From positions 1 to 52,216 of IMG/VR virus record IMGVR_UViG_3300025655_003190: a stretch of DNA of 52,216 nucleotides. One strand, written 5' to 3'. Every line of letters starts with the position of its first letter. The first letter of the stretch is position 1. Below are positions 6,655 through 41,679 of this stretch, piece by piece. Origin of the DNA: a virus (taxonomy: Duplodnaviria; Caudoviricetes). The translations under genes and the position numbers were made by a program. Below the pieces are notes generated by a model. It did no database searches and was not told where the DNA came from. It worked only from the letters and a program-made list of their open reading frames with translations.

Positions 6655-6683
6655 AGTATAACATGAAAATTATGTTATGTCAA
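6655..6683 (-). promoter_or_regulatory. Sigma70-type promoter, likely leaderless
   Basis: TTGACA-17 nt-TATACT with extended TG; ATG 6 nt downstream. Confidence 0.8.
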
Positions 6684-7564
6684 TGTTTTCTAATTTTTTG
6701 TTTTAATGTATCTACATCAATTGATTGTCCTGTGTAATGTTCCGGACAAAATTTACATTGCGGTATTTCGTTATCGATATGATCTAAGAACGCTTGCCCT
6801 TCGCCATTTTTAACCATTTCTAAAGTTAGCGGTTGATAGTTTTGTACTAATTCTCGATCTTCGGTTGATAAATCAAAATCAAATTGTTCAATTAATTCTG
6901 GAAATAATGCAACAGGACCGCACTTATAAATGTTTCCTCGAATAAAATGATAATTTTTATTTTTAACAAACGTACAAAACTCGTGTACTTGTGTAGGATT
7001 GTTGTTGTGTAGCTTCATTGGTGTACCAGAATCTAAAATGCTATTCTTCCAAAAATAATCCTGATGCCAAACCCCAACTCCTACACCTTCATTATTTTCA
7101 TAATACCAATGACTGCCAAACCTCCCGCAACCGTTTTGATCATATTCTCTTTTTGAAATATTACCTAGATAATTTTCAATACGTTCCTCAATAAACTCAA
7201 GCTCGTTTAGATGATGAAGGCTTATACCAATCCAGGTCATGTTATCTCGGCATGCTTCATACAACCCTTTGACTTTGTCTAGTTGGGTGGCATTGGTAAG
7301 AATTTGTTTACCGTATTTAGGCCATAAACGGTGCAATCCTTTAATCCAATCAACGATACTTGGATTTAAAAGAGGTTCGCCACCAAGTATAACAATACGG
7401 TCAAACTCGATATACTCTGCCCACTCTTCGTAAACTGCTTCGTAGTCTTTCCACAGTTGTGTTCCGGTAAATTTTAAGTTATTAAAACGGTTACATTCGT
7501 TGCATGCCAGGTTGCAAACGTTAGTAATATAGAATTCTATTTTAGGAATGAATAATTTTGACAC
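6680..7564 (-). CDS. Radical SAM protein
   Basis: CNLACNEC, LGGEPLL, TNA, C-terminal YKCG...CKFCP. Confidence 0.88.
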   Translation of the reverse strand: MSKLFIPKIEFYITNVCNLACNECNRFNNLKFTGTQLWKDYEAVYEEWAEYIEFDRIVILGGEPLLNPSIVDWIKGLHRLWPKYGKQILTNATQLDKVKGLYEACRDNMTWIGISLHHLNELEFIEERIENYLGNISKREYDQNGCGRFGSHWYYENNEGVGVGVWHQDYFWKNSILDSGTPMKLHNNNPTQVHEFCTFVKNKNYHFIRGNIYKCGPVALFPELIEQFDFDLSTEDRELVQNYQPLTLEMVKNGEGQAFLDHIDNEIPQCKFCPEHYTGQSIDVDTLKQKIRKH

Positions 7565-13757: not shown

Positions 13758-14645
13758 TTATTCAATTACCAATTGAATACCTTGCTCAAACGATCGCGGA
13801 GCATAAGTTGGGTAAAGTTCTTTAAGCTGACTAATGTCTGGGCGGCGTCTTTGGGTACTTCCAGGACGGCTTGGTGCGCAAACCCAGTTAATATTGATAA
13901 TTCCTAGCTTTAGAGCAATAATATTAGCAGCATCGATAGTCGACAATTCTCTATCATTGCCAACATTAACAACTCGACCTTGTACATTATTACCTAAATA
14001 TATCGAAGCATCTACTGCATCATCAACATAACAATAACTTCTAGTTTCGTTGCATCCAATTAATTCAAAATTATTGTTTTTAATTTTTTCAATGATATCA
14101 TAAACAAAATGCCCTGGTAAACTATATTTGCCGTAAATGTTGAAATATCTAATTGCTACCCAAGGTAAATTAGAATTAGCTAGATAATTCTCTGAGCAGA
14201 TTTTTGCTAATCTATAACACCATCGAGGGTTATGTATGTTATCAATTGTTATATCCGTTGTTTCGTCAATAATATCATGTGGATGCCCGCTTGGAACTTC
14301 GCTACTACTGGCATACACAATTTTTTGAAGATTTTTATTTTGTTTAGCAAACTGAAATAATGCGAGGTCTGTGCCAACATTATTTTCTAAAAGTTCGTTA
14401 GCCATTGAATAGAAATATTTTGTTCCGTTAATTGCACTATAGTGATAGATATAATCAAAATCTGTGTCAAGGTCCTTTAATGCATCAACGACATTTGATT
14501 GAATATAACAATCTGCGTTAGGGGTGCGTTGTGATCTAAAATTGTTATCAATAGCTACAACTTCGTTACCTGACTGCTTTAGCTGATTACAAAGTTCATG
14601 CCCTAGGAGTCCACTTGCTCCTGTAACTAAAATTTTTGCTGCCAT
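13758..14645 (-). CDS. NAD-dependent NDP-sugar epimerase/dehydratase (UDP-glucuronate decarboxylase-like)
   Basis: TGASGLLG, ASSSEV, PRWCYRLAK (YxxxK), RYFNIYG, TRSYCYVDD. Confidence 0.88.
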   Translation of the reverse strand: MAAKILVTGASGLLGHELCNQLKQSGNEVVAIDNNFRSQRTPNADCYIQSNVVDALKDLDTDFDYIYHYSAINGTKYFYSMANELLENNVGTDLALFQFAKQNKNLQKIVYASSSEVPSGHPHDIIDETTDITIDNIHNPRWCYRLAKICSENYLANSNLPWVAIRYFNIYGKYSLPGHFVYDIIEKIKNNNFELIGCNETRSYCYVDDAVDASIYLGNNVQGRVVNVGNDRELSTIDAANIIALKLGIININWVCAPSRPGSTQRRRPDISQLKELYPTYAPRSFEQGIQLVIE

Positions 14646-15364
14646 TTTTTGTTTAACTCCTTTATATGCTTAAACCAGTTTTGTGCTGGATCTTCGTCTT
14701 CTAGTGTTTCGATTAAAAAATCAAAATCTTTTGGCAAGCACTTGCCGCCAAACCCACGTGTACCGTCGTGTCCTGGTACTTCCATATATGTTTGATCGTG
14801 TTGTACTTTTAAAAAAGTATCTTTAACTTTATTATAGTCTGCACCCATTCGTTGAGCTAGATCATAAAACACATTAGCAAATGCAATGCGCAACACTCCA
14901 AAATTATTAGAAAACATTTTAATTAGTTCTGCTTCAGCTGTAGTACATCTAATAATATCTTCGTTAGACAACCAGTCTGGAAGACTATCGGTCCCGTCAT
15001 ACCCTACTACAAGAGGTCTGTTTAAACAATCAGTATCCCAGTACCGTTCTCGTAAAAATTCCGGCATGTAAATTATATTACCAATCTCGTCATGTATTCG
15101 TTTACAAGAATGCAACGAAAGTGTACTACGTACTACAATAGTAACATCTGGGTTCAATTTTTTTAATTCTTTAATTTCATGTATAACTGTATTAATGTCA
15201 TCATTGGTGTTTGTTGGTATGCAAACAAATACCGTGTGAGAATTTTTAAGAATCGTTCGATCGGTGTGTAATAAAAGATCATGTATTACACATTCTCGGT
15301 CTTTAATTAATCCTTTATGGGTTCCTTTTCCAACATATCCATAACCTAGAATTCCAAACATCAT
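14627..15364 (-). CDS. ugd: UDP-glucose/GDP-mannose 6-dehydrogenase family protein, short form
   Basis: GYGYVG, CIPT, RST, PEFLRE, AELIK, GFGGKCLPKD (catalytic Cys); lacks the usual C-terminal domain. Confidence 0.8.
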   Translation of the reverse strand: MMFGILGYGYVGKGTHKGLIKDRECVIHDLLLHTDRTILKNSHTVFVCIPTNTNDDINTVIHEIKELKKLNPDVTIVVRSTLSLHSCKRIHDEIGNIIYMPEFLRERYWDTDCLNRPLVVGYDGTDSLPDWLSNEDIIRCTTAEAELIKMFSNNFGVLRIAFANVFYDLAQRMGADYNKVKDTFLKVQHDQTYMEVPGHDGTRGFGGKCLPKDFDFLIETLEDEDPAQNWFKHIKELNKKWQQKF

Positions 15365-16746
15365 CCTCCTCCTTTAATTGCGTTCAGTAGATTATTGAGC
15401 TTACTTCCGTCTACATTAGCAGCAATTTTTTTAGTATCCTGGGTAGAGTTTGTTGCATTACTAATTGGCTTGATGCTATTCATAATGTTTGAAGTTGTTG
15501 GCATGTTAGAATCTTCTGATTGATCACAATCAGAAATACGTAATGTTTCTATATCAAATTCTAAATCCACTTTTGAACCAACGCCAGAACTTGAACGTGT
15601 TTTCATTAACTGGATTTGATAGCGGCCACGCTCGCGCATTGCTCTTGACGTAAAAATACCAAACACATTGTCTGCTGTGTTAATCTTAGAAATACCACCT
15701 GAAATATGCGAGTGGTCAAACTCAATTTCTTCTACTGCTGAACGGTTTAACTGTGATGCAGTTACCATAATAACGTTTAATTCCTTTGCTAAGTTGCGAA
15801 TTTCTTCTGACACATACTTGTCCTTAACAAACAAATCACTTGGACTTACTTTAGCACTTACTGGCATTAACAAGTCCAGATAGTCAATACACAAAAAGTC
15901 CACAGTAACACCAGTTTGGATTTGTAATTCTTTAATGTAACTACGAATATCATTTACTGTACTTTGTGCCGGCATGTACTTGATACGAAACTTGCCAGAC
16001 TTCTTCTGCATCATCTTAACTTTCATTTCAACATTATCAATGTCCTTAAATACTTCCTTGCTAGATGTATTAGTCATCATTGAGTCAATACGCATCGAAC
16101 ACAAATCTTCTGAAAGTTCTAACGAAATATATACGCCATTGAGTCCTGCTTGTACCCAGTTCACGCTTAGATTCTGCATAAACAAACTTTTACCCGAACC
16201 TGAACCACCGGCAAAAATCTGTAGTTCTCCTCTATTAAATCCACCATACAACGCACGGTCTAAGTTAAGCCAACCTGTACTAACTTGTCCGTTGTTGGAC
16301 TTAATATTCATTAGACGTGTACGCGGATCTTCAAAGTAATCTGTGCCCATATCCTTGTGTAAACTAATTTGTACCGCATCTTTAACAAGTTTTTCTACTG
16401 GATCAAAGTCACCTTTTTCTAACAAGTCTGCTGATTTAAGAATTGCACGTTCTAGCTCTTGCCGCCTGGTAAACTTTTCAAACTCCTCCATGAACCAATC
16501 ATAATGTCCATCTTTCATCTCCGGAGGAATTGGTTTTAGCTTCGCACCTACCGCAGCATTGAGTTGTTCTAATTCGGGCATAGTCTTATATTTGTCGCTA
16601 TGCTCTTTAATAAACGTTGCTGCTTCACGTAAACTTGGATCAAAATTATCTACGTTGTAGATGTTCTGAACACGCACATAACTTTGTGCATCCCCAAGCA
16701 TCATTTCTAAAAATAACTTTTGTATATCTACTGAATAATCTTTCAT
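15361..16746 (-). CDS. Replicative DnaB-family helicase (T4 gp41-like)
   Basis: Walker A GGSGSGKS, SLEL, IDYLDL, TASQLNR, MKTR. Confidence 0.93.
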   Translation of the reverse strand: MKDYSVDIQKLFLEMMLGDAQSYVRVQNIYNVDNFDPSLREAATFIKEHSDKYKTMPELEQLNAAVGAKLKPIPPEMKDGHYDWFMEEFEKFTRRQELERAILKSADLLEKGDFDPVEKLVKDAVQISLHKDMGTDYFEDPRTRLMNIKSNNGQVSTGWLNLDRALYGGFNRGELQIFAGGSGSGKSLFMQNLSVNWVQAGLNGVYISLELSEDLCSMRIDSMMTNTSSKEVFKDIDNVEMKVKMMQKKSGKFRIKYMPAQSTVNDIRSYIKELQIQTGVTVDFLCIDYLDLLMPVSAKVSPSDLFVKDKYVSEEIRNLAKELNVIMVTASQLNRSAVEEIEFDHSHISGGISKINTADNVFGIFTSRAMRERGRYQIQLMKTRSSSGVGSKVDLEFDIETLRISDCDQSEDSNMPTTSNIMNSIKPISNATNSTQDTKKIAANVDGSKLNNLLNAIKGGG

Positions 16747-17705
16747 AGTTTCCTTTTAAGAGCCTTGCGTGCTAACTCAATCTTGACTTTGCTAGAATTT
16801 TTATTATTAATAATATCAATCAGGGTATTTAATCTGCCATAACGTTGTACAGCGTCATTTATATCTTTAATATCTGCATCCCATTCTGGGATACTTACTG
16901 AAAACCCATACTTAACTGCATCATCAATCAGTGCTAGACCTGCTTGATCATGATCTGGTACTACAACAACTTCCCTGTTAAGTCGACGTAGGACCGCAGC
17001 TTGAGTATCACTAATTCTATTTGTTGTTACTGCTACTCCATCAATGCTTAACGCATCAAATTGTCCTTCGACTACAACCACAAACTGCCAATTATCGTGT
17101 TGATTGTCTATACCAAACACGTATCCTGTTTGTTGCTCATGTAAGTACTTCGGTCGTCTATTGTCAAGGAAACGGGTGGTATGTCCTACAATTTTATTAT
17201 TGTACGTATACGGTATCAACACGCCTAGTCTTGGTTGATCCGGATCGATCATATATGGATAGTCCCAGGGATCTATTCCTCTGTTGCGTAAGTATTCTAT
17301 TATTTCTGAATCAGAATCTTCAATTAAACGTGCATTTGCTGGCAATGATGTTTCATTAAAATGAACACGCTGTTCTTCATCTGCACGCTCACGCAAAATT
17401 TGATTTACATCTTTGTGCTTTAGACTTTCCAGATTTAACCGCTGTACTTCAATTTCTGGCACGCCCATCCATTTAAGCAAACGTTGTGCTTTATAACTTA
17501 CAGGATATCCAAGAGTAAAGCTAGCAGTATAGCCGCAATTGAAACAGTGATAGCTCCAGTCTGTATCCGTCGAAAACTTGAGTCCTCCGCGCATACGTCT
17601 GTCAGCAGTTTCCCCGTTGTGTATACAACAAGGAGCATTAAAACTAGTCCAACCAGAAGTAGAAGTTTTACGTTTTCCATTGATGTAAGATAGTATATTT
17701 AACAC
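16743..17705 (-). CDS. DNA primase (T4 gp61-like; Zn finger + TOPRIM)
   Basis: PCC...YHCFNCG zinc domain; VVEGQFDA and PDHDQAG TOPRIM motifs; adjacent to the helicase. Confidence 0.9.
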   Translation of the reverse strand: MLNILSYINGKRKTSTSGWTSFNAPCCIHNGETADRRMRGGLKFSTDTDWSYHCFNCGYTASFTLGYPVSYKAQRLLKWMGVPEIEVQRLNLESLKHKDVNQILRERADEEQRVHFNETSLPANARLIEDSDSEIIEYLRNRGIDPWDYPYMIDPDQPRLGVLIPYTYNNKIVGHTTRFLDNRRPKYLHEQQTGYVFGIDNQHDNWQFVVVVEGQFDALSIDGVAVTTNRISDTQAAVLRRLNREVVVVPDHDQAGLALIDDAVKYGFSVSIPEWDADIKDINDAVQRYGRLNTLIDIINNKNSSKVKIELARKALKRKL

Positions 17706-17711
17706 TTTATA

Positions 17712-17741
17712 ATTATAGCATATTTACGTTGTGTTTGTCAA
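17712..17741 (-). promoter_or_regulatory. Sigma70-type promoter for primase, likely leaderless
   Basis: TTGACA-18 nt-TATAAT with extended TG; GTG start 6 nt downstream. Confidence 0.75.
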
Positions 17742-17759
17742 CGCTATATAAATATCTTG

Positions 17760-18875
17760 ATGAACAAAACATACTGCCCATCTATCCACGGTGGTATCTC
17801 AATTAACTTAACTAAAGATGGCCGAGGTGTTGTTAAACCGTGTTGCGAAATTTTTATGCCAATGGTTTATATTGATTCCCTTACCCAACCAATATTTGAC
17901 CACCCTGAGTTTTTGAAACGCAAACAAGCAAACGATCAAAATCAATGGGATCAAGGATGCAACGGATGCCGCGCCATTGAAGAAAGCGGCGGATACAGTT
18001 ATCGTCAAAGTCAAATTGATCGATTCGGAACTTCTAACAATAAAGAACATTTAGCTGTGTTGGACTTAATGTACGACACCAGTTGTAACTTAGCTTGTCG
18101 AACATGCGGTCCAGCATCAAGTACCTATTGGCAAAAGCACCTTAAAGATAACAACATTAAATTACCGGCAATCCAGCCACAGTCTCATCAAAACTTATCT
18201 AATACTGTCTTAAACACCATATTAACGCAACGTATTAAAACTGTTGATCAAGTAAAACTCAGCGGCGGCGAACCATTAATGAATCCAGGCTACTGGAATT
18301 TATTAGAACAAATGATAAACCAAATGCCTGGAGTATTTACTAACTCTGAACTACATGTACAGACCAACGGTACTCATTCATTATCCAAGGTACACCAAAA
18401 TATATTTTCAAAATTTAGATTGGTTAGAATAAGTTTTTCGATCGACGGCATTCAAAGTCAATTTGAATATCTTCGCTGGCCAGCATTATGGTCGCAAGCT
18501 ACTGATAATATCTTAAAAATGAGGGATACTGCACCTTCAAATGTAATGTTTAATTTTGAAGAAACTATTAGTATCTTTAATTTGTTTAATCGGCATCGCC
18601 TTCCAGAATGGATTGCAAACAATATCCCTACTAACCGCGACGGCGATCCAGTAATTTACAATATGCATTTAGCGCACGGTGATTTTTCAGTTCAAAATCT
18701 TAGCAATGAATATGCCGCTGCAATCAATTACAAATTCTTACCAAACAACTTTGTCGAGAATCACAATAACATTTGCGCAATGATAGATAAAATAAATCAG
18801 TTTGACAATTTACGTCAACAAAATTGGCTACACGCATTTCCAGAATTAGCCGAATTCTATATTAGATTCATCTAA
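17760..18875 (+). CDS. Radical SAM protein with N-terminal Cys-rich (twitch-like) domain
   Basis: YCP...KPCC...CNGC, then CNLACRTC, SGGEPL, TNGT, SIDG; TATAAATA at 17747-17754. Confidence 0.88.
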   Translation: MNKTYCPSIHGGISINLTKDGRGVVKPCCEIFMPMVYIDSLTQPIFDHPEFLKRKQANDQNQWDQGCNGCRAIEESGGYSYRQSQIDRFGTSNNKEHLAVLDLMYDTSCNLACRTCGPASSTYWQKHLKDNNIKLPAIQPQSHQNLSNTVLNTILTQRIKTVDQVKLSGGEPLMNPGYWNLLEQMINQMPGVFTNSELHVQTNGTHSLSKVHQNIFSKFRLVRISFSIDGIQSQFEYLRWPALWSQATDNILKMRDTAPSNVMFNFEETISIFNLFNRHRLPEWIANNIPTNRDGDPVIYNMHLAHGDFSVQNLSNEYAAAINYKFLPNNFVENHNNICAMIDKINQFDNLRQQNWLHAFPELAEFYIRFI

Positions 18876-19568
18876 CCAAGATATAATACGTTCGGCAATA
18901 ATCTTATGTCCGGTTTCATTTGGATGTCTCTGTGGCGCAAACACTTCTTGACCGTATCCTTGAAGGTATGCACGCATATTATCCATTGGTGCGTAATATG
19001 TAGGTACCGAAATTGCTCCAGGTATTACATTTAGCACATTAAATTGTACTACCGGGATGTTGTATCTTGCAGCAATGCCATCAAATAACAATAAAGTTTC
19101 GTTTAAATTTTTTAATTGCAATTCGTCGCACATTTGATCGTCGATAAAACTTTTAAATGCATTGCGCCAATTATCTGAATAATTTAAATTATCGTGCAAC
19201 ATCCAGGCACTATGAACATGCTTGTTCCACTCCGGATCACCATGACCTGGCTCATGGGCAGCGTTATGCCAACTCCAACGCCATGATTCCGTTAACCCTA
19301 CTAACAAAATTGTGTCTTGAACATCGTGATTAGACACGTACCACGTAACTGTATCACGCATTGATACTAAACTAGCACCCGGAAATGCAAGATTTTCTAA
19401 TTCTAGCCCGTAGTGATTAGCAACTAATCCAGGGTATCCGTGGGCAAGCCGATACGGGGTATTATAATCCCACCACTTAGGTTGATGTTTAGAATTTACA
19501 AATTCTGGATCATCAAGCTCGTCGCCAAAGGTCCAGGAGCAGCCAAACGCTACAAGTTTCTTAATCAT
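18846..19568 (-). CDS. SGNH/GDSL hydrolase-like protein
   Basis: FGCSWTFG (block I), NLAFPGAS, HPNETGH (block V). Confidence 0.75.
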   Translation of the reverse strand: MIKKLVAFGCSWTFGDELDDPEFVNSKHQPKWWDYNTPYRLAHGYPGLVANHYGLELENLAFPGASLVSMRDTVTWYVSNHDVQDTILLVGLTESWRWSWHNAAHEPGHGDPEWNKHVHSAWMLHDNLNYSDNWRNAFKSFIDDQMCDELQLKNLNETLLLFDGIAARYNIPVVQFNVLNVIPGAISVPTYYAPMDNMRAYLQGYGQEVFAPQRHPNETGHKIIAERIISWLDESNIEFG

Positions 19569-19582
19569 ACGTATAATTATGG

Positions 19583-19933
19583 TTAGTAATTAATGCGAAC
19601 TGAATTTACTGTGCCGTCTGTATATTCAACTACAGCACGTAGCCATACAAAGTTACCTGTGAAGTTAACTGCTGTATTGCCATCTTCTTGTGTTGTGCCG
19701 TCTGAAAACACAGTAATGTCTGCCCAATCAGTTGAGCCTGGATTTGTGACTAGACTGCCTTGAACGGTAATGGTTCCAGTAAATCCTGTTACAGAAAATA
19801 GCGCAGTATGGCGACCATCAGCTTGTCCGTAGTACCCGTTACCTTTGACTGCGTCACTGGTTACAGTTTGTACAGAGCTATCGCTAGGATGCGTTTGTTG
19901 TGAAACTAAAAGTTGTGTAGTAATTTGCGCCAT
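19583..19933 (-). CDS. Putative small virion structural protein
   Basis: Beta-rich, Thr/Gly-rich; similar to the C-terminal part of the next gene; TAAATA upstream. Confidence 0.55.
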   Translation of the reverse strand: MAQITTQLLVSQQTHPSDSSVQTVTSDAVKGNGYYGQADGRHTALFSVTGFTGTITVQGSLVTNPGSTDWADITVFSDGTTQEDGNTAVNFTGNFVWLRAVVEYTDGTVNSVRINY

Positions 19934-19941
19934 ATCAATAT

Positions 19942-20679
19942 TTATCTTACATATACGCTGCCAACAGTACCACTAGTACTATCAACTTTCAAACGCATAT
20001 AGCTGTGTAAGCCTTCTACATTAATGTATTTTGTGTCTGAGTCTGCGCTGCCAAATGTAGCAGAAGTTAAATCATACCACTCTGTTCCGGTAGGTGAACC
20101 TTGTACAGTTACAGTACCTACAAATGAACTGTTTGTGTATTGTACTGTTTGTAAATATTGTTCTGGTTGCCATTCTGAACTGTAATTTGTTTGACCTGCT
20201 GTAAAACTTGGTAGGGTTATTTCTGAACTTGCTACAAACTCTGGCATTACTGCATCTTGAATATAGATTACACCTCGTGCTCCTGCATTGTCATCAATAT
20301 ATACAGGTTCTGTTAATGTTGAACGATTTACTGTAATAGAATAATTTGCTAATTGCGATTGTATATTGTCTAAATCTGATTCAACAATAGTAAGTTTAGC
20401 CTGGCCACGAGCAGCAACCACTGTTTCTAAGTCTTTAGTGAACAATAATTCTGTACCATCTCTGCTTATTACACGACAGGTAAATGTTAGTCCTGTAATG
20501 TCCACTGGCTTTTGATCCTGATTTAAAAATCTAAATAGGATAACGTTGTCTACGCCTTTCGAGGCTTTTAAGTTCTTACTAAACACTGGTTCCCACCTCA
20601 CATTGTGATAGGCTCCTGTGTTGTCTGATAACAACACTACCTGAGTCTGTTGATATAAATATGCTAAAGTTGAATACAT
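19942..20679 (-). CDS. Putative virion structural protein (BppU-N-like)
   Basis: FRFLNQDQKPVDITG...GQAKLTI pattern typical of baseplate upper-like domains; TAAATA at 20698-20703. Confidence 0.5.
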   Translation of the reverse strand: MYSTLAYLYQQTQVVLLSDNTGAYHNVRWEPVFSKNLKASKGVDNVILFRFLNQDQKPVDITGLTFTCRVISRDGTELLFTKDLETVVAARGQAKLTIVESDLDNIQSQLANYSITVNRSTLTEPVYIDDNAGARGVIYIQDAVMPEFVASSEITLPSFTAGQTNYSSEWQPEQYLQTVQYTNSSFVGTVTVQGSPTGTEWYDLTSATFGSADSDTKYINVEGLHSYMRLKVDSTSGTVGSVYVR

Positions 20680-20702
20680 ATATAAGAGCCTTTTAACTAT
20701 TT

Positions 20703-21080
20703 ATGGATACAGAGCTATTTGAAAAAATCACCGATAAGTACCCGTTCCTATCAATAGTTCGGTATGCAGAAAACGAACATGTTGGAATTATTTTAAATCA
20801 AGACTTACAAGTCACTACAATGTATGACTTTGGTAGTATCTACCACGATGATTTAAAACGTTTATTTCTAGAACTAGGCGAGACCTGGTGGTGGGAAAGC
20901 AATCACACCATTCCCATTAATATATTTTTAAAAGCAGATTGGGAAATATTTAAACCATATCTAAAAACTTTTAATAATAAAAATTTAGAAATAGTATCTG
21001 GGCAAGTTACGAGCCTTTCGGATTTAACCAAACATAAAAAGAAACGTAAGAGTATTACTCTTGTGCGGCGTGTTGATTAA
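20703..21080 (+). CDS. Hypothetical protein (WWWESN motif)
   Basis: 125-aa ORF divergent from the structural gene. Confidence 0.7.
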   Translation: MDTELFEKITDKYPFLSIVRYAENEHVGIILNQDLQVTTMYDFGSIYHDDLKRLFLELGETWWWESNHTIPINIFLKADWEIFKPYLKTFNNKNLEIVSGQVTSLSDLTKHKKKRKSITLVRRVD

Positions 21081-21615
21081 CGATATTCATATGTAATACT
21101 ACAAGATGTGCGTAGCTCACGGCATGAGCACGTTTAAATGTATACCCGTCATCTGTCTTATCCCATACCGTTTCAGACACTTCTTTCCATGGCTTGCCAA
21201 TAAGGTGTTTCTTTCCTGGTCTAATCATTGCTAAGAACATTGCCATTCGCGGGATAGAATTTACATCAAGATCCTTTAATATGTTAGCATAGTTGTTGAT
21301 ATGTATAATTTTTTCAACAAATTCTGGGTCGTGTAACTTGTGCCACGGTGGTTCTGTATTCATTAACTGGTCATAGTGCGCTTGATCCTTAATATGCTCG
21401 TACACATGAACATTAAGAAAATCAATCTTAAAGTATCCTAGCTCTTCTGCTCTTTTGTAATCAATACTTGCGCAATTACACACAGGATCCACAGGAATGG
21501 GTGTTACGTATACGCCCGAGTTATGTTTGCGATCCTGCTGGCGTGCCGGAATATGTTTAATTAGAGTAAGAATAGAACTTCTATCACCAAAGTCAATATC
21601 AATGTCTGCGCTCAT
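21055..21615 (-). CDS. dnaE: Minimal DNA polymerase III alpha (family C)-like protein
   Basis: DIDIDF, HNSGV, KIDFL, IRPG and YTFKRAHAVSYA match DnaE palm/fingers motifs in only 186 aa. Confidence 0.75.
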   Translation of the reverse strand: MSADIDIDFGDRSSILTLIKHIPARQQDRKHNSGVYVTPIPVDPVCNCASIDYKRAEELGYFKIDFLNVHVYEHIKDQAHYDQLMNTEPPWHKLHDPEFVEKIIHINNYANILKDLDVNSIPRMAMFLAMIRPGKKHLIGKPWKEVSETVWDKTDDGYTFKRAHAVSYAHLVVLHMNIVNQHAAQE

Positions 21616-22259
21616 AACTTTTGTATCCATTGTGTTAGTGAGATATTCAATTCCTGTTCGAGCTCACTAATCATTGTATAGAAAAACTGTTTATTATCTT
21701 TAGATAATTTTGGTCTTCTGCTTTTATATAGTGTAACATTTATCGGTGTTTTGTCAACCTTGATCGGTGCTGGAAGATCAAAATGAGTTGAATAACGATT
21801 TATAAAGTCTGTATCCGACAACTCGTCATACAAAAAAGTAGCAAACCGATCTTTAAAAAATTCTTTCCAGCGCCGCACAATTAGTCCAGGATGATTTCCG
21901 TGTTCCATCATAATAGGAACAGCAGAATTAAAGTCACCGGACGAATTAGTAAAATTATATAAACTCCATAACATATCCACTGGATCTCGAATAATTATTG
22001 TAGCTCGAACAGTTGCTATATCCGATAATTGCTCAATTAAATATCTATCAATAGCAAACATCGCTGGATTAAAATTAGCAGAATAGTTAAATTGACTATA
22101 CTGATTAATATATTCTTCTATACCTTTACCGTTGATTAACCATGCATTTTCTTTATCGCATCCAGATTGGTCAAACCAACGCTGTTTAATGAGGTTAGTC
22201 CATAACCAGCTAGATCCTGCTTTAGGATATCCAATATTAATAATATGTTGCTTTTTCAC
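21612..22259 (-). CDS. Sulfotransferase family protein
   Basis: IGYPKAGSSWL (5'-PSB loop) and IIRDPVDMLWS (3'-PB motif). Confidence 0.8.
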   Translation of the reverse strand: MKKQHIINIGYPKAGSSWLWTNLIKQRWFDQSGCDKENAWLINGKGIEEYINQYSQFNYSANFNPAMFAIDRYLIEQLSDIATVRATIIIRDPVDMLWSLYNFTNSSGDFNSAVPIMMEHGNHPGLIVRRWKEFFKDRFATFLYDELSDTDFINRYSTHFDLPAPIKVDKTPINVTLYKSRRPKLSKDNKQFFYTMISELEQELNISLTQWIQKL

Positions 22260-22672
22260 AGGTTCAACACATTTCGTATAATCGGTAAGTTGAATCTATA
22301 TTCTAGTGATCCTCTAGTATATAAAGTATTGGTATTAGACTCAATACGGCCGTCAAACCCATACATTGTACCAGAATAAAGAAATTTTGGTTGCGAGAAA
22401 AATTGATCAATTGTTAAGTTAACAACTTCTAACGGAAAATCGTTAACTACATCATCGTAGACACTCAATTGTAATATCACCGGGTATCTTGTATCAATGT
22501 TTGTAACATCAAAACTAGCAGAAGTTCCTGGGACCATATATTGTTTTACCAGACATTCAGACTGATTTTGCACAACTTTCGCAAAAATATCATATTCCTC
22601 GTAATCACCAATTACAGATTCTGCTTTTTGTGCTTTTGTAGTAATAGTGAGTGTAGTATACGGAGCTACCAT
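22256..22672 (-). CDS. Hypothetical protein
   Basis: 138-aa coupled ORF. Confidence 0.6.
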   Translation of the reverse strand: MVAPYTTLTITTKAQKAESVIGDYEEYDIFAKVVQNQSECLVKQYMVPGTSASFDVTNIDTRYPVILQLSVYDDVVNDFPLEVVNLTIDQFFSQPKFLYSGTMYGFDGRIESNTNTLYTRGSLEYRFNLPIIRNVLNL

Positions 22673-23370
22673 CCAGCCTTCCGAAGCATTTCTTTAACAT
22701 ATTCTTGATCAGCAGGATACTTATTAAAAATACGTTCCCACACTTCTGGATTAATGTATTCCCAAATTAACTGTTGTTGATCTGTATTTAAGTTTGTTAG
22801 GAAATCCATGCCTGAATCAGAATTATATATTACCCAAGGACTCAGTGTTCCTTTTGTAATAAGTTGACATACCCGATTTGCATTATTAAAACGTATAACG
22901 TCCTTAGGGTCTGCGTTTTTTTCTTCACCCCAATTGATGCTATATTCCATTGCTCGAACCAATGCACGATCAGCACGTTCTGACACTAACAAATGCATTA
23001 AGTATTCTTGATAGGTACTATCTTTAGCCCAATGGTCTAGTTTCTTGTTGTTTTTAATAACGTATTCAATAAATTCCGATACATTAATAGCGCCAATTGA
23101 TACACAATATCGTCCAAATTTAACAAATGCTTTATAGTAAGGACTTTTAGCAAAATCATCAAATGTTTTTAGCTTTGCCGAACCTTGTGTGTATTCAAAA
23201 AACTTTAGATATGCCTGGTACCCGATTTGAACTCCACGTTCATCCTTTTCCTGAAATCGTTTTTTCTGCTCGCAGACATGTACTGCAAGACTACTTTCGC
23301 GCTTGAATTCTCGCTCGCAATACTTACAGGTATATATATCAGTTGTTTCCGTGAAGTTTAATGTACTCAT
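22666..23370 (-). CDS. Hypothetical protein with N-terminal zinc finger
   Basis: CKYCEREFKRESSLAVHVC. Confidence 0.7.
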   Translation of the reverse strand: MSTLNFTETTDIYTCKYCEREFKRESSLAVHVCEQKKRFQEKDERGVQIGYQAYLKFFEYTQGSAKLKTFDDFAKSPYYKAFVKFGRYCVSIGAINVSEFIEYVIKNNKKLDHWAKDSTYQEYLMHLLVSERADRALVRAMEYSINWGEEKNADPKDVIRFNNANRVCQLITKGTLSPWVIYNSDSGMDFLTNLNTDQQQLIWEYINPEVWERIFNKYPADQEYVKEMLRKAGW

Positions 23371-23785
23371 TTACTTCTTTTTTAGTAACAAGTTTAGATA
23401 ATATTTCAATATCGCTAAGTTTAACAGAAGGAAATAATTCAGATAATTGCTTTTTAATTTCCGAGGACTTGTCTTCCTTCTTCTTCATTTGTAGCCATTT
23501 GTGTTTTTGCGGGCCAATGCCTGGAGCTGCTGCACATAACTCTAACCATTGCAACTTAGGATGCTTATTGATCTCATACCAGTTCTTGTTACAGTAATGA
23601 TTAGCAGCCGCTAGATAATAATGTTGAATTTCACGTGACCCTTCTACACTTGCTCCCCACTTTAACGCAAGAAAGGCACTAAAGCCCTTACGTTCTTCGT
23701 CGCTTAGATTATCATAAAAATCATAATCCTTGCGATCCATTGCCGCAAGCATTTTAAAAATGTCTAATTTAGCCGCCACCTTCAA
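23339..23785 (-). CDS. Putative clamp-loader small subunit (T4 gp62-like)
   Basis: Size and pattern (FLALKW...AANHY...HPKLQW...KHKWL) resemble gp62-type proteins; located in the replication region. Confidence 0.45.
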   Translation of the reverse strand: MKVAAKLDIFKMLAAMDRKDYDFYDNLSDEERKGFSAFLALKWGASVEGSREIQHYYLAAANHYCNKNWYEINKHPKLQWLELCAAAPGIGPQKHKWLQMKKKEDKSSEIKKQLSELFPSVKLSDIEILSKLVTKKEVNEYIKLHGNN

Positions 23786-24206
23786 TATTCCTATCTGGTC
23801 CTGTTAGTACATCCCACATACGATGCTTTTCTACTTCCTGCTCATATTCTGAACTGTCTGGAAGTTGATTAATTATACGTTCAACTTCGCGCATATGTTT
23901 GTTAAACATTTCTTTTAATTCTGGATGACGTTCTTCCATCACATAATCACGTTCCGGGATGTTTAGCACACGTTCAATGATTTTAATACGTTCTTCTATA
24001 TCCCAAGTACCTTTGTCACCGTGTACTTGGATACCTTTGGAAACATTTTTGTCGTTGTTAAGAGATATGTTACCCCAATTTAACCCTGCTGTGTTAATGG
24101 TATAATCATCATAATCATCATAGTTATACGGCACAGTAATAGTTACTGGGTTTCCATTTTCATCATCAATATCTACCATTGTTATAGTAATATTGTCGTC
24201 CTTCAT
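23769..24206 (-). CDS. Hypothetical protein
   Basis: Probable start MKDDNIT at 24206. Confidence 0.6.
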   Translation of the reverse strand: MKDDNITITMVDIDDENGNPVTITVPYNYDDYDDYTINTAGLNWGNISLNNDKNVSKGIQVHGDKGTWDIEERIKIIERVLNIPERDYVMEERHPELKEMFNKHMREVERIINQLPDSSEYEQEVEKHRMWDVLTGPDRNIEGGG

Positions 24207-24207
24207 A

Positions 24208-24711
24208 TTACCCCCAGGCTTTATTATAATCCACCACTTCGCAGTTGCGAGATACGTCTTTAATAAAGTAAACACATTCTGGATTCTCACCATCACTCAA
24301 TGGAACAGCCAGGTACTGTCCGTTCTTTAATTTAGGTGCATACCAAGAAACTTCATTGTATACATCTACAATTTCAATTGGAAGGAAAGTAGGAGCATAT
24401 GAGCTCAAGCTATTATACTGATATACTTTAAAGTCGCGATCATTTAAACTAGTTAAAGGTAATGCTTCAAGATCGCCAAGGTCATCTTCGCCAATTAGAA
24501 CAGACCAATCCAGCGGCATCTTAATTTGTTTATCGCCAATTTTTAATACAAGTGCCGGACTAGTAAATGATTCTAAAAAGATAAGCGGGATATAAAAGTA
24601 ATCTGGCTCATTTGGATCGCTATTGTCTAGAATAGCAAAGCGCATGTCATCTATTTCTTCTGGCAGCGTATCTAAATTATATGCTGTATTTTCTAGTGTG
24701 TGAATTCTCAT
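24208..24711 (-). CDS. Hypothetical beta-rich protein
   Basis: 167 aa with its own promoter; possible degenerate Hint-like fold (see findings). Confidence 0.7.
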   Translation of the reverse strand: MRIHTLENTAYNLDTLPEEIDDMRFAILDNSDPNEPDYFYIPLIFLESFTSPALVLKIGDKQIKMPLDWSVLIGEDDLGDLEALPLTSLNDRDFKVYQYNSLSSYAPTFLPIEIVDVYNEVSWYAPKLKNGQYLAVPLSDGENPECVYFIKDVSRNCEVVDYNKAWG

Positions 24712-24717
24712 GGTATT

Positions 24718-24746
24718 ATTATAGTATAGTTTAGTTCTGATTGCAA
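24718..24746 (-). promoter_or_regulatory. Sigma70-type promoter, likely leaderless
   Basis: TTGCAA-17 nt-TATAAT; ATG 6 nt downstream. Confidence 0.72.
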
Positions 24747-24747
24747 C

Positions 24748-26208
24748 CTATTTCCACTCGTACTTTTCTTGTGTAAACGGATAGTTTGCTTCTTTATAAA
24801 ACGCCTTGCGCTTAGTTAAATGTCGTTTGGCAAACTTACATGTTGAAGTTATGTCCCAGATTTGGACATGGTCTTTATCTTGTGCTTTTCGTATACCACG
24901 GCCAATGGACTGAATAACACGAACAAAAGACTTGCCAGGCTCAACAAGAACAAGATTGAAAATACGAGGAATATTAATGCCAACGGCAGCAACACCATAC
25001 GTTGCAACAATAATTTTATTGTCAGATTCTGAAATTTCATCATAATGCTCTTGTCTATCCTTTGCTTTTGTTGCACCACTTACAAATACTGCTCGGTCGC
25101 CTAAACGTTCTACTAAGTCAGTGCCGGCACTAACACGATCAACCAGCACAAGTGTATTACCTGACTCATTGATACTCTCGATCATTTGTGAGATAACGTT
25201 TAATCTATCTTGGTCACTTAACAAGAATTTAAGTTCTGCTTGGTAGTTGGTATGCTCTGCATGATCTTGTAACTGTACAATGTTAACGTGACAGTTGGCA
25301 AGTACACCCTTTTCTTGTAGTTCATTGGCAGCAATACGATTAATAACCGGGCCAATGCTTACATGCAATGCCTGAAACTCAAATAATTCCTTGGGGATGG
25401 TTCCGGTTAATCCCCAGCGTAGCGGAATCTTTGCCATTGGTCCTGTTAGTAGGGTTTTAAGTGCGTCTGCTTTTGCTTGATGCACTTCGTCGACAATAAC
25501 ACAAACAACATCCTCTAAAAACTCACCAATGGAAATAGGTGCTTGTTGATTACGTGTTGCTTTTAATAGCGAGTTGAGTGACTGCCACGTACAAATAGTA
25601 TGTGTCTTACCAAACTCTTTTCTATCACCGTAAAATACACCAACATCTAACTGCATGTTGATGTAATCCTTTTCGGTTTGTGTTACCAAACTTTTGTTGG
25701 GTACAATAACAATCGATCGTCCATACTGTTCAACACGCTGACTAAGAGCTGCTGTCATCAGTGTCTTACCGGCACCTGTAGCAATCTCCTGCAAGCTCTG
25801 TGGATTCTCCAGAAAGTTATTAACAACTTCAATTTGGTAATCACGTAATTCAATAGGCTGTCCTTCTGCTGGATGCCCTTTTGGCCAATGTACATGACCA
25901 AACGAATCTGTTTCTACACGTTCAAACTCAAACGAGGTGCGATAATCACGTTGATCGTCTAGAAGAATGTCATAGTTATTGTCTGCTAATACCGGAATGA
26001 TTTCCGGAAGCAAATTAACATAAGTGCTTCCGCCCATTTGAAAGAATGCTACTTTCCCATCCCAACGTCCTAGTCGCACTGCTGGCAAATAACGTGCGTG
26101 TGGTATTACATACTTAAACTGATTTACAAGTTTTTTTCGAATGTTAAGATCTAATCCTTCAATTTTAACATTCACTTCGTCTTTAATTACTAATTTTGCT
26201 CTAAGCAT
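24748..26208 (-). CDS. uvsW: SF2 DNA helicase, UvsW-like
   Basis: LRDYQ, ATGAGKT, DEVH, GLTGT, QSIGRGIR, HLTKRKAFY. Confidence 0.9.
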   Translation of the reverse strand: MLRAKLVIKDEVNVKIEGLDLNIRKKLVNQFKYVIPHARYLPAVRLGRWDGKVAFFQMGGSTYVNLLPEIIPVLADNNYDILLDDQRDYRTSFEFERVETDSFGHVHWPKGHPAEGQPIELRDYQIEVVNNFLENPQSLQEIATGAGKTLMTAALSQRVEQYGRSIVIVPNKSLVTQTEKDYINMQLDVGVFYGDRKEFGKTHTICTWQSLNSLLKATRNQQAPISIGEFLEDVVCVIVDEVHQAKADALKTLLTGPMAKIPLRWGLTGTIPKELFEFQALHVSIGPVINRIAANELQEKGVLANCHVNIVQLQDHAEHTNYQAELKFLLSDQDRLNVISQMIESINESGNTLVLVDRVSAGTDLVERLGDRAVFVSGATKAKDRQEHYDEISESDNKIIVATYGVAAVGINIPRIFNLVLVEPGKSFVRVIQSIGRGIRKAQDKDHVQIWDITSTCKFAKRHLTKRKAFYKEANYPFTQEKYEWK

Positions 26209-31690: not shown

Positions 31691-32395
31691 TTACCAGTAT
31701 TTATCAATTACTGGGTCTGAAATCTCATGTAGTTTAGGTTTGCCATGAAAAACAATTACTCGTGTATCATCAACAAAAGTTCCTGTGCCAGGAGCCTTAT
31801 GTCTATGTGTATTTATGTCATATCCTCCATCTAGTAACTCCCAACGCCAGCTTCTAACCAATTTTTCATCAAAAAATTGCATTTGTGGCGGGGGAACTTT
31901 TTTATCGATATAATTTTGATCCCCATGAAGCCTAGACATATAAGCACCTGGGTCCAATTTGAAGTCTTCCCATATATACCCAAACTTATCGACATTAAAA
32001 TACATCAAACTACTGTTGAGTTCTCGCTTTCTTTGATTGAACAAATAGCGAAAATCTCTAATCCCCCAGAAGTATTTAGGATCGCAATCTAAAATCCAGT
32101 CAAGCGATCCTGATATTGCAACATCAAGGTCTAGATACAAAAGTTGTCCGGAGAATTGTGTTCTGTCAAATAATTGAACCTTATACCACCATCCTTTGCT
32201 CGCACCATGCGGTGATAAATCTTTTAGCGGATGCTTAATATATTTGTCAGGAACTTCTCTACCTGGTTCTGTATACACATGAAGTTTTATTTTTTTGTTG
32301 AGATTACGTTTAAGACCTTTATAAAGTTTATCGACATAGATCCAGTCATACATTGACCCGTGTATTACACATGCGCAATCAATAATATCTTTCAT
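31691..32395 (-). CDS. Glycosyltransferase, GT-A fold (GT8-like)
   Basis: WWYKVQLF, YLDLDV (DxD), NSSLM, GDQNYI, VFHGKPK. Confidence 0.78.
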   Translation of the reverse strand: MKDIIDCACVIHGSMYDWIYVDKLYKGLKRNLNKKIKLHVYTEPGREVPDKYIKHPLKDLSPHGASKGWWYKVQLFDRTQFSGQLLYLDLDVAISGSLDWILDCDPKYFWGIRDFRYLFNQRKRELNSSLMYFNVDKFGYIWEDFKLDPGAYMSRLHGDQNYIDKKVPPPQMQFFDEKLVRSWRWELLDGGYDINTHRHKAPGTGTFVDDTRVIVFHGKPKLHEISDPVIDKYW

Positions 32396-40229: not shown

Positions 40230-40909
40230 AAACCGTGCTGTTCACAGTATTCGGTAAAAATACGTTCGCGATGCCATTCGCTACCCATTGGCGTATTAGC
40301 AAACTCGTGGAAACTTGGTGTGCCTAATGTATAATGCAACAATTTAGCATCAGGATTCTCACCGTATTCATCAGGAAGCCAATTCCACTCAGGTGGCAGT
40401 TCACCGATGCGTTCATCTTTAATCCAACTAAAACGATGCAAGTGCGAGCCGGTTGATTTTTGAATGTAGTCTGGTTTCAATATGCGGTTAGGATGACTAT
40501 TGCAGTTCCAAAGTATTACGCTTGACCAGTTCTTGCGTGGATAATTTTCGTTTTTGCTACCTAAATACTTGGTAGTCATTTTAGTTTCATAATCGTGTTT
40601 AACTACCATTACGTCTTTGTCTGCTTCACGCAATTCCCAAAGTTTGACAATATCATCGCGCACAATCATATCGCCATCCATAAAGATAGCCCATCCAATA
40701 TAATCCATTAAGTGCGGAACAAGGAATCTACTATAGATAAAGTGATTGCTTCCATCTGTATGTGTTTCTTTATAATCGTCAAACAAATTTAATGCAAGCG
40801 GAATAATTGAAACCGGCTTACTTGCGTGTCTAATAATTGAATTAGCACACGTGTGATATGCTATTGCTTCTCGTGGATCGTATCCGATAAAAATTGGAAT
40901 TGGTTTCAT
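40226..40909 (-). CDS. Glycosyltransferase GT-A (GT8-like)
   Basis: IFIGYDPRE, SRFLVP, FMDGDM, YPRKNWSS, HYTLGTP. Confidence 0.8.
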   Translation of the reverse strand: MKPIPIFIGYDPREAIAYHTCANSIIRHASKPVSIIPLALNLFDDYKETHTDGSNHFIYSRFLVPHLMDYIGWAIFMDGDMIVRDDIVKLWELREADKDVMVVKHDYETKMTTKYLGSKNENYPRKNWSSVILWNCNSHPNRILKPDYIQKSTGSHLHRFSWIKDERIGELPPEWNWLPDEYGENPDAKLLHYTLGTPSFHEFANTPMGSEWHRERIFTEYCEQHGL

Positions 40910-41679
40910 AATCTTGTAATGTCGTCTTCGTCGCAGCGATTACCGTATTGTATTTCTACCACTCTACACGGTTTGTTAAATGGATTGGTTAATTGGTGCC
41001 ACTCGCCGCAGATAATAGTAAATTCGTCATGCTTTTCTAATTGTTTTGGAGGCATTGTGTATCCAGATTCTAATCTACTATTAACAATGCATTTACCTTC
41101 ACTAACAAGCCAATACTCATTACGCTGTGCATGCTTTTGCATAGATAAACTCTTACCTGGATCGACTGTAAGCTCTTTTACCTTACAGCCTTCTACTTCG
41201 TGTAGCACACGATAATATCCCCATTGGCGAGTTGTTTTTGGTGATTTCCATTCTTCAAGTATCCATGAGCTACTATTTGCTTTATCTTCGCCGCCAACTC
41301 CAAACACAAACTCTACTTCTTCAAATACCATTTCTGGAATGTTATCTCGAGTTCTATCTCCGCCGTTAGCGAATATTACACTATCAAACGGAATCCAGTT
41401 ACGTGTATCATTTTTAACGCTAAGAGCGTATTCAATTGCTTTACAAGCAGATCCGTCCGAATCATCAAATGCAACAACTTCGTCAACGCAGCCAAGTGCT
41501 TCAACAATAGCAGCACGCTCGTGCCACGGCATAAACGAACGTCCTTTTTTACGAACAAGCCAGTCATCAGAATTTACGCCTACAATTAAATAAGCGCCTA
41601 AATCTTTTGCTGCTTCTAGGTAGCGGATATGTCCGCTGTGAAGGGGATCAAATCCCCCAGTGGCTACTACAATTTTCAT
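40906..41679 (-). CDS. Cytidylyl/nucleotidyltransferase (TagD/RfaE-like) fused to a type II phosphomannose-isomerase-like cupin
   Basis: TGGFDPLHSGH (HxGH), GVNSD, ANGGDR, SSS; then RQWGYY...SLSMQKH...EYW...WHQLTN...EIQYG...EDDI. Confidence 0.88.
   Translation of the reverse strand: MKIVVATGGFDPLHSGHIRYLEAAKDLGAYLIVGVNSDDWLVRKKGRSFMPWHERAAIVEALGCVDEVVAFDDSDGSACKAIEYALSVKNDTRNWIPFDSVIFANGGDRTRDNIPEMVFEEVEFVFGVGGEDKANSSSWILEEWKSPKTTRQWGYYRVLHEVEGCKVKELTVDPGKSLSMQKHAQRNEYWLVSEGKCIVNSRLESGYTMPPKQLEKHDEFTIICGEWHQLTNPFNKPCRVVEIQYGNRCDEDDITRL

Follow-up and report, generated by a model that had tools for sequence, protein, structure and literature searches.

The IMG/VR virus record IMGVR_UViG_3300025655_003190, a 52,216-base stretch of DNA (hereafter the window) that derives from an uncultured freshwater phage and amounts to about 15% of a genome, carries on its minus strand a 186-amino-acid (aa) open reading frame (ORF) at positions 21055 to 21615. 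Our analysis indicates that the product of this gene is very probably the C-terminal unit of a minimal polymerase core of the DnaE type (C family), which T4-like group 2.2 jumbo phages encode in two genes. Its identity as the C-terminal half (C-half) of a split enzyme is the part of this assignment that we regard as close to secure, and templated polymerization of deoxynucleoside triphosphates (dNTPs) is the activity that we modestly favor. The split-core reading is supported by homology, conservation, co-occurrence of the two halves, natural fusions, a modelled fold and modelled docking. A minimal DNA polymerase III alpha that is divided between two genes lying far apart has been described in group 2.2 jumbo phages, consisting of an N-terminal nucleoside triphosphate (NTP)-binding protein and a C-terminal Mg-/template-binding protein (Iyer, Anantharaman, Krishnan, Burroughs, Aravind 2021, Viruses 13:63, PMC7824862).

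The ORF was listed at 21055..21630, with 191 aa from the first ATG, and a second ATG at 21615 gives a product of 186 aa. Since the closest homologues are 183–186 aa long and begin at the methionine encoded at 21615, the coding sequence is taken to be 21055–21615. The preliminary description of this DNA, made from its letters alone, had claimed an intact 186-aa ORF whose start overlaps the upstream stop, and this was borne out: within the minus-strand ATGA at 21615–21612, ATG is the start of the C-half and TGA is the stop of a 215-aa ORF, an arrangement that suggests translational coupling of the two genes. The gene and the motifs discussed below are located as follows.

21055–21615, minus strand: coding sequence of the very probable C-terminal unit of a split minimal DNA polymerase III alpha, 186 aa, with the stop codon at 21055–21057.
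21612–21615, minus strand: ATGA start/stop overlap with the upstream 215-aa ORF (21612–22259), read from the sequence and the ORF ends.
21589–21606, minus strand: DIDIDF, residues 4–9, the DxD strand; D4 and D6 correspond to Escherichia coli DnaE D401 and D403, as judged from conservation and a fused homologue.
21511–21525, minus strand: HNSGV, residues 31–35, a putative palm strand following the position of the DnaE thumb, as judged from conservation and the model of the fused homologue.
21415–21429, minus strand: KIDFL, residues 63–67; K63 and D65 correspond by profile alignment to E. coli K553 and D555, the latter being the third catalytic aspartate.
21214–21225, minus strand: IRPG, residues 131–134, corresponding by profile alignment to E. 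coli FRPG 638–641 in the fingers.
21109–21144, minus strand: YTFKRAHAVSYA, residues 158–169, the steric-gate helix; by profile alignment, H164 corresponds to E. coli H760 and A163 to S759.

All five motifs are thus present in the DnaE order that had been claimed for them. Their assignment depended on a family profile, since a single-sequence phmmer search of the PDB returned only chance-level matches to lipocalins and capsid proteins (E values of 0.7–1.4). With a profile built from 71 family members, the nine PDB matches at E ≤ 1 were all DNA polymerase III alpha chains, the best being E. coli (1.3e-5), followed by Thermus aquaticus (5.8e-5) and Mycobacterium tuberculosis (7.6e-5). The alignment to E. 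coli DnaE spans only residues 540–641 and 740–767, and places the KxD motif on 553–555 (KIDFL on 552–556), RPG on 639–641 and YxFKxxH on 754–760, the helix YTFKRAHAVSYA being aligned with 754–766. The equivalence of D4 and D6 to D401 and D403 was obtained through a natural fusion of the two halves, P0195, by phmmer and in a mixed alignment of fused and split sequences (A5), and the HNSGV motif, which lies outside every sequence alignment to DnaE that we made, has as its counterpart in the model of P0195 a beta strand (E218–227). In E. coli DnaE, D401, D403 and D555 are the catalytic residues and H760 is the steric gate (PMC8485763). The claim that all three catalytic aspartates are kept likewise holds, as D4, D6 and D65 are present and invariant both in 32 close homologues and in 71 diverse members of the family.

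At the level of protein families, the ORF belongs to PHROG 11778 (annotated 'DNA polymerase', 197 positions), which matches residues 7–187 of the 191-aa form (181 of 191) over profile positions 6–194 with an E value of 2e-58, and it displays weak matches to the DnaE-type PHROGs 405 and 11165. The family is large and widespread. Homologues were found by tblastn in 96 isolated phage records, 95 of which are matched over at least 80% of the query; these phages include PA5oct and its relatives, RaK2/K64-1, GAP32, CBB, 121Q-like coliphages, Atu_ph07 and Phosso. All of their copies are below 60%, and at most 46%, identical to that of the window, compared with 84–88% for metagenomic copies. A metagenomic protein collection holds 6976 C-half homologues at E ≤ 1e-3, and a library clustered at 50% identity contains 380 clusters of the family.

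The residues expected to matter for catalysis are strictly maintained. In an alignment of 32 close homologues (A1), the motif residues are invariant, including D4, D6, H31, G34 and H164, and in an alignment of 71 representatives with 29–58% identity (A6), D4, D6, K63, D65, R132 and P133 are invariant and D8, H31, G34, K161 and H164 are conserved in at least 90% of sequences. The ratio of nonsynonymous to synonymous substitution rates (dN/dS, Nei–Gojobori) has a median of 0.061 and a range of 0.028–0.095 over the 47 usable of 55 pairs, the other eight having saturated synonymous sites and the set as a whole lying near saturation; it was computed over the first 178 codons of 14 coding sequences, 11 of them distinct (the window and L007–L019, the truncated L020 being left out). 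These values indicate that the C-half family is under strong purifying selection. They bear directly on the notion that the gene is a decaying or catalytically dead DnaE remnant, retained as a scaffold or not retained at all. Such a remnant would agree with the loss of most DnaE domains and with the failure of Pfam to recognize the ORF, yet a dN/dS near 0.06 with almost saturated synonymous sites, a length of 182–199 aa among the best 120 of the 6976 homologues, and catalytic residues that stay invariant at 29–58% overall identity leave this explanation with almost no probability. Variable length and loss of the aspartates, named in the preliminary description as marks of decay, are not what the family displays. 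Because length is conserved, the aspartates are invariant and the fused homologue described below is modelled with a palm fold, we consider the C-half gene functional and not decaying.

Comparison with E. coli DnaE revealed how much has been removed. The C-half lacks the parts before residue ~398, the thumb, some 90–100 residues between 641 and 740, and everything after ~770; the fingers segment between 641 and 740 is cut to about 12 residues. Pfam did not assign the ORF to any family at E ≤ 1, and a chain of 186 aa is too short to accommodate further domains, so that PHP, thumb, HhH and OB domains are absent, as had been claimed. A PHP domain was also sought as a separate gene and was found in none of five records searched, including the complete genomes of PA5oct and Phosso, although the control search was positive in 14 of 14 genomes. 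The earlier characterization of the gene as a 'clean internal compaction rather than truncation' stands only in its first half. Internal compaction is evident, but the ORF begins three residues before the DxD motif, and the GS-motif NTP-binding segment that precedes the DxD strand in DnaE is missing; the protein is therefore cut at its N- and C-terminus as well. The GS motif (GRGSS) and the acidic triad consequently do not reside in one chain, the motif being located in a partner protein.

This partner, the N-terminal half (N-half), was identified through a PHROG 405 search of the PA5oct genome, which returned the C-half family at 144 kilobases (kb) and, at 187.7–188.0 kb, a 169-aa ORF that matches DnaE profile positions 362–429 (E 3.2e-8), ends just after GRGSS and belongs to PHROG 11127 (7.8e-46). 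The N-half family comprises at least 7996 members of ~160–185 aa, carries PF07733 with an invariant WGxGRGSS, and always ends in EFL[RK]. The partner half (33.2 bits) and the fused homologue (59.6 bits) both score above the PF07733 cut-off of 23.9 bits, and the ORF itself does not. The two halves travel together. N-halves occur in 93 isolated phage records and C-halves in 96, and the tallies are equal in the genera listed for both (Escherichia 34/34, Pseudomonas 11/11, Salmonella 8/8, Erwinia 8/8 and others) except Klebsiella, with 10 N-halves and 11 C-halves. An N-half is likewise present in four of four long related contigs; in one of these, whose C-half is 84% identical to that of the window, the two genes lie ~72 kb apart. 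Spacing is 33–44 kb in RaK2, GAP32, CBB and PA5oct and 182–224 kb in Atu_ph07 and Phosso.

Three rare natural proteins join the halves in a single chain. In the library clustered at 50% identity, one representative, P0195 (375 aa), was matched by the query at its residues 190–372, and a search around its length yielded 16 proteins: three fusions, 11 C-halves of 206–222 aa and two proteins combining PHP with PF07733. The fusions P0195, P0271 and P0272 are 375–376 aa long and 78–81% identical to one another. In P0195, PHROG 11127 covers residues 8–180 and PHROG 11778 residues 190–374, and both PHROG 405 (6e-15) and PF07733 (4.8e-16, residues 97–207) run continuously across the junction. By phmmer, residues 106–205 of P0195 are colinear with E. 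coli DnaE 319–417 (3.5e-6), and all nine matches at E ≤ 0.01 are polymerase III alpha. From the phmmer match and alignment A5, the split point falls after the FL at the end of the GS-motif helix pair and ahead of the DxD strand, a gap bridged by nine residues in the fusion. In a tree of 85 rows (71 full-length representatives from 150 listed, fragments having been dropped, with three fusion C-parts and the 11 C-halves of 206–222 aa), the three fusions group together in a single clade (100/100) that lies within the split forms, under a midpoint root only and with the bootstrap not settled. This topology fits, without proving, a single late fusion; since the fusions are one derived clade among split forms, the split state looks older than the fusion within the phage family, again under midpoint rooting. 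The three fusions would also be convenient single-chain proteins for a first activity assay. Apart from these, the two PHP-containing proteins P0284 and P0285 (540–551 aa, PHP with PF07733) match the fused mini-DnaE weakly (E values of 6e-6 and 8.6e-4) and may be intermediate or differently split DnaE forms.

Structural modelling agreed with a palm that is assembled from both chains. Modelled alone from the 32-row alignment A1, the C-half reached a mean predicted local distance difference test score (pLDDT) of 73.6, with residues 65–186 well predicted and residues 1–5 and 21–57 below 50. Foldseek ranked T. aquaticus polymerase III alpha first for this model at a non-significant E value of 0.59; in VIA-align, the seven best rows were all C-family polymerases (Z scores of 5.1–9.4), the next unrelated row having a Z of 2.5, and the best was 4iqj_C (Z 9.4, root-mean-square deviation [rmsd] 3.4, 121 aligned residues, model 65–186 onto chain 621–841). 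For the fused P0195, an AlphaFold2 model was obtained from alignment A5, which contains three fused, 19 N-half and eight C-half rows and was checked by eye before folding, an earlier mixed alignment (A3) having placed N-halves on C-half columns and the outcome of MAFFT having depended on the row numbers. This model reached a pLDDT of 85.8 and a predicted template modelling score of 0.81, with confident palm strands. Its 19 best Foldseek matches are all C-family polymerases (4.5e-8 to 1.4e-3; next Cid1, 0.62), the best 25 matches in a viral model library are phage DnaE-type polymerases, and in VIA-align 16 entries aligned over 305–341 residues with Z scores of 12.1–21.6, the next being a CCA-adding enzyme at 3.9. 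Individual scores were 21.6 for 5lew (rmsd 4.3, 329 aligned), 20.3 for 3e0d (341 aligned), 17.6 for the PolC entry 3f2c and 15.4 for E. coli 5fkv. Superposition on the DnaE palm, which had been proposed as a check, therefore succeeds for the fused homologue (Z 12.1–21.6) and not for the C-half alone, whose palm part (residues 1–57) is largely disordered. A Pol-beta-like palm carrying the aspartate triad is thus present in the models, which is where it has been seen, and the earlier concern that the palm fold could not form finds no support in the model of the fusion. In the same alignments, the matched region begins at DnaE residues 21–46 (353–380 in PolC-numbered entries), inside the PHP region, an observation confined to the alignment ranges; the first ~80, poorly conserved residues of the N-half may be what is left of a PHP domain.

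For docking, the C-half of the window (A1) was modelled jointly with the N-half found in the 84%-identical relative (A2), using alignments that we had built ourselves. The three runs each scored 0.90, compared with 0.01 for the best of three controls; of 157 solved complexes 116 attained the mark used, as did 2 of 215 mismatched pairs. Contacts agreed between runs to at least 97%, with a pLDDT of at least 88 for the partner and ~90 for the chain from the window. The confident interface joins residues 2–10 of the C-half, the DxD strand, to partner residues 122–135, which form the strand and the turn of WGxGRGSS. The model supports binding of the two halves but does not demonstrate it.

These observations also bear on a proposal made in the preliminary description, that the 186-aa protein is by itself a self-sufficient minimal nucleotidyltransferase. 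Its intact ORF, its conserved length and its three aspartates would suit such an enzyme, as would the distance between the genes of the two halves, which do not share an operon. However, the GS NTP-binding motif is located in the other gene, the halves co-occur almost perfectly (93 and 96 phage records; four of four long contigs) and are fused in three natural proteins, and the palm that is disordered in the isolated C-half reaches a pLDDT of ~90 with the partner, at a docking score of 0.90 against 0.01 for the best control. We therefore consider a stand-alone enzyme highly improbable, and it is the other option raised at that time, a subunit of a multipartite polymerase, that gains support from the co-occurring halves, the three fusions and the predicted docking.

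A split catalytic subunit is not in itself without precedent, since cyanobacteria encode the catalytic subunit DnaE in two genes far apart, whose intein-bearing products are rejoined by protein trans-splicing. In the phage halves, by contrast, EFL[RK] is the end of the N-half, and only two or three residues precede the DxD motif in the C-half. Intein-mediated joining was rejected on the lengths of the halves and their end-to-end alignment; because neither half carries an intein-sized extension, the two would have to act as a non-covalent pair. In the mechanism that we propose for the split polymerase core, the C-half would supply the three metal-binding aspartates (D4, D6 and D65), K63 and cut-down fingers ending at the steric-gate helix (H164), and the PHROG 11127 partner would supply the GS NTP-binding motif from a gene tens to hundreds of kb away. 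Pairing of the DxD strand with the strand just before the partner's GS motif would rebuild the Pol-beta-like palm, and the resulting heterodimer would add deoxynucleotides to a primer on a template. Use of dNTPs is favored because the steric-gate histidine is retained. Since the thumb, clamp-binding, HhH, OB and PHP parts have been lost, the enzyme is predicted to be distributive, of low processivity and devoid of its own proofreading, working beside a family B replicase in roles that may plausibly include primer extension, gap filling or repair.

The family B replicase was found in all three relatives searched. None was detected in the 52-kb window, a negative result that says nothing about the whole genome because the fragment covers ~15% of it; the earlier suggestion to search the genome for separate PHP genes and a family B polymerase was thus answered in the relatives for the latter, by absence from all five records for the former, and in the phage itself for 52 kb only. 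In PA5oct, the family B polymerase at 217.6–221.4 kb is matched in two open frames (825 and 379 aa), and metagenomic relatives hold it in one frame of 893–897 aa; in PA5oct, an intron or an inserted homing-endonuclease gene may break up the frame.

A different activity for the same two-gene enzyme was weighed, namely that the rebuilt palm serves a template-independent nucleotidyltransferase engaged in DNA or RNA tailing, in nucleotidylation of proteins or small molecules, or in producing a nucleotide signal. The thumb, clamp-binding, HhH and OB parts that hold DNA in DnaE are all missing, our literature search found no assay, and the structures that rank next after the C-family polymerases for the fused model are those of CCA-adding enzymes, MenT toxins and Cid1-type terminal transferases, these at Z scores of 2–3.9 only. 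Against this, the fingers remnant keeps RPG and the steric-gate histidine helix, which in DnaE place the dNTP opposite the template, the match to true polymerases reaches Z scores of 12–22 compared with less than 4 for terminal transferases, and the gene sits within a conserved primase–helicase module. Taken together, these points make a template-independent activity unlikely.

Several considerations weigh against the assignment to a split polymerase core. As noted, Pfam is silent on the ORF, and PF07733 (DNA_pol3_alpha) has no match in the 52-kb window. Neither PHROG 405, PHROG 11127 nor the PA5oct N-half as a query detected an N-half in the window; since the record is only ~15% of a genome, this absence says nothing about the whole genome, and for the same reason the pairing in this very phage is deduced from its relatives. 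The 'C-terminal unit' of Iyer et al. is taken to be PHROG 11778 by its description, not by accession numbers. Both structure models are predictions, and the docking result may reflect likeness to DnaE, because the fold that the two chains make up has repeatedly been solved as a single chain. Whether synthesis would be templated is less than certain, because all DNA-gripping parts of DnaE are absent. Besides Iyer et al. 2021, our literature search found no paper treating the family and no reported assay of any member, and a 2026 jumbo-phage review contains no occurrence of 'polymerase III', 'DnaE', 'family B', 'PolB' or 'split'. The main text of the PA5oct omics paper, for its part, makes no mention of a DNA polymerase.

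The genomic setting provides further hints toward function. The genes of the window form a T4-like jumbo phage set, including ribonucleotide reductase, DnaB, primase, two helicases, UvsX, UvsY, a gp32-type single-stranded DNA-binding protein (SSB) and the large terminase. The features of the conserved module around the C-half are as follows.

20703–21080, plus strand: convergent 125-aa gene matching PHROG 11637 (no assigned function).
22666–23370, minus strand: 234-aa PHROG 11058 protein with a C2H2-like zinc finger at its N-terminus, a conserved upstream neighbour.
15361–16746, minus strand: DnaB-like helicase (PHROG 19, E 3e-71).
16743–17705, minus strand: primase (PHROG 47, E 6.9e-38).
24748–26208, minus strand: DNA helicase closing the module on the other side (PHROG 16, with a counterpart in PA5oct).

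The 3′ end of the PHROG 11637 gene overlaps that of the C-half by 26 nucleotides in the window, 17 in PA5oct and 4 in Phosso, so this convergent arrangement is conserved across distant phages. The order in PA5oct is helicase (PHROG 16), 11279, 11758, 11058, C-half, 11637 (opposite strand), a structural protein, primase and DnaB; in Phosso, 11058 is followed at some distance by the C-half, 11637 (opposite strand) and a structural protein, and further on by primase and DnaB. From 15361 to 26208, the window displays the same module mirrored, with a few genes inserted:

17757–18875: radical S-adenosylmethionine (SAM) gene.
18846–19568: GDSL-like gene.
21612–22259, minus strand: 215-aa ORF with a weak, below-cut-off sulfotransferase match (PF00685, E 0.002).
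22256–22672, minus strand: 138-aa ORF without a match.
23769–24296: 175-aa ORF.

Two of these, the 215-aa and 138-aa ORFs, occupy 21612–22672 between the C-half and its usual upstream neighbour. In PA5oct the PHROG 11058 gene immediately precedes the C-half, and in Phosso it is found close by. Its zinc finger spans residues 13–32 (Pfam E 8e-4, below the cut-off), a search of the Atlas placed it in phage-specific clusters only, without function, and the protein is a possible DNA-binding partner of the mini-polymerase. A scan of 20500–23500 for promoters and terminators gave nothing usable, with 17 promoter-like sites (13.8 ± 4.5 expected) and one terminator-like site (1.3 expected), and the nine sequencing runs in which the stretch occurs are all freshwater or estuary metagenome DNA, with no RNA run listed. 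Elsewhere among the replication genes, three radical-SAM-like genes and a group of sugar-nucleotide genes (epimerase, UDP-glucose dehydrogenase-like, glycosyltransferase and heptose kinase/adenylyltransferase-like) were noted at 521–1639, 6680–7564, 17757–18875, 13758–15364, 31691–32395 and 40906–41679, which hints at a glycan or DNA-modification pathway.

The conserved primase–DnaB–helicase module, seen in three distant phages, together with the steric-gate histidine and the lost processivity parts, underlies a more specific possibility that we raise tentatively: the two-gene mini-DnaE may be a primase/helicase-coupled primer-extension polymerase or, as suggested by Iyer et al. (PMC7824862), a preserved ancestral minimal form of the C family. 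In the former case it would take over RNA primers and then hand them to the family B replicase in a two-polymerase fork, resembling the forks of Bacillus (DnaE to PolC) and of eukaryotes (Pol alpha to Pol delta). Bacillus subtilis DnaE is a second C-family polymerase that extends RNA primers, hands over to PolC and occurs in a complex with primase and helicase (PMC3664799). The phage enzyme would resemble it as a DnaE-type enzyme beside another main replicase, its tie to primase and helicase consisting here of gene neighbourhood only. The two differ in that B. subtilis DnaE is a full-length single chain with measured activity (PMC3664799). By this analogy, and from the place of the gene beside primase and DnaB, primer extension is at most a reasonable guess.

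Returning to the split polymerase core itself, its motifs follow the same order as in DnaE (E. coli 2hnh/5fkv, T. aquaticus 2hpi/3e0d, M. tuberculosis DnaE1 5lew) and PolC (3f2b/3f2c), with which it shares the modelled Pol-beta-like palm, the DxD and KxD motifs, the lysine before the third aspartate, RPG and the steric-gate histidine helix. Unlike DnaE, which has 1100–1200 aa in one chain, the phage enzyme has ~350 aa in two chains, without the PHP, thumb, clamp-binding, HhH, OB and tau-binding parts. The split minimal polymerase III alpha is a kind already known, described from sequence in 2021 (Iyer et al., PMC7824862). Compared with the unit in that description, the gene of the window is likewise a Mg-/template-binding subdomain only, with its partner on a distant gene in relatives, and the phages share a T4-like jumbo character with a family B polymerase (here from relatives), gp32-type SSB, UvsX/UvsY, DnaB and primase. 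It does not differ in kind, the present copy coming from a fragment of an uncultured freshwater phage. Our analysis documents three fusions that align colinearly with E. coli DnaE, confident models of a fused protein and of the two-chain heterodimer, an almost one-to-one occurrence of the halves in isolated phages, the dN/dS values and the conserved primase–helicase module.

The finding concerns a large family, in which each half forms ~7,000 clusters of sequences at 90% identity, and a core gene pair of a major jumbo-phage clade that includes the therapy candidates PA5oct and RaK2-like phages. Several phage records label C-half homologues as membrane protein or hypothetical protein; these labels are unsuitable, and a fitting annotation would be 'DNA polymerase III alpha-like, C-terminal unit of split enzyme'. 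As two chains, the pair very probably represents the smallest known version of the catalytic core of the bacterial replicase. Its reconstitution would reveal what a palm and a finger stub can do without thumb, clamp and proofreading parts, and why phages that own a T4-type polymerase keep a mini-DnaE under strong selection.

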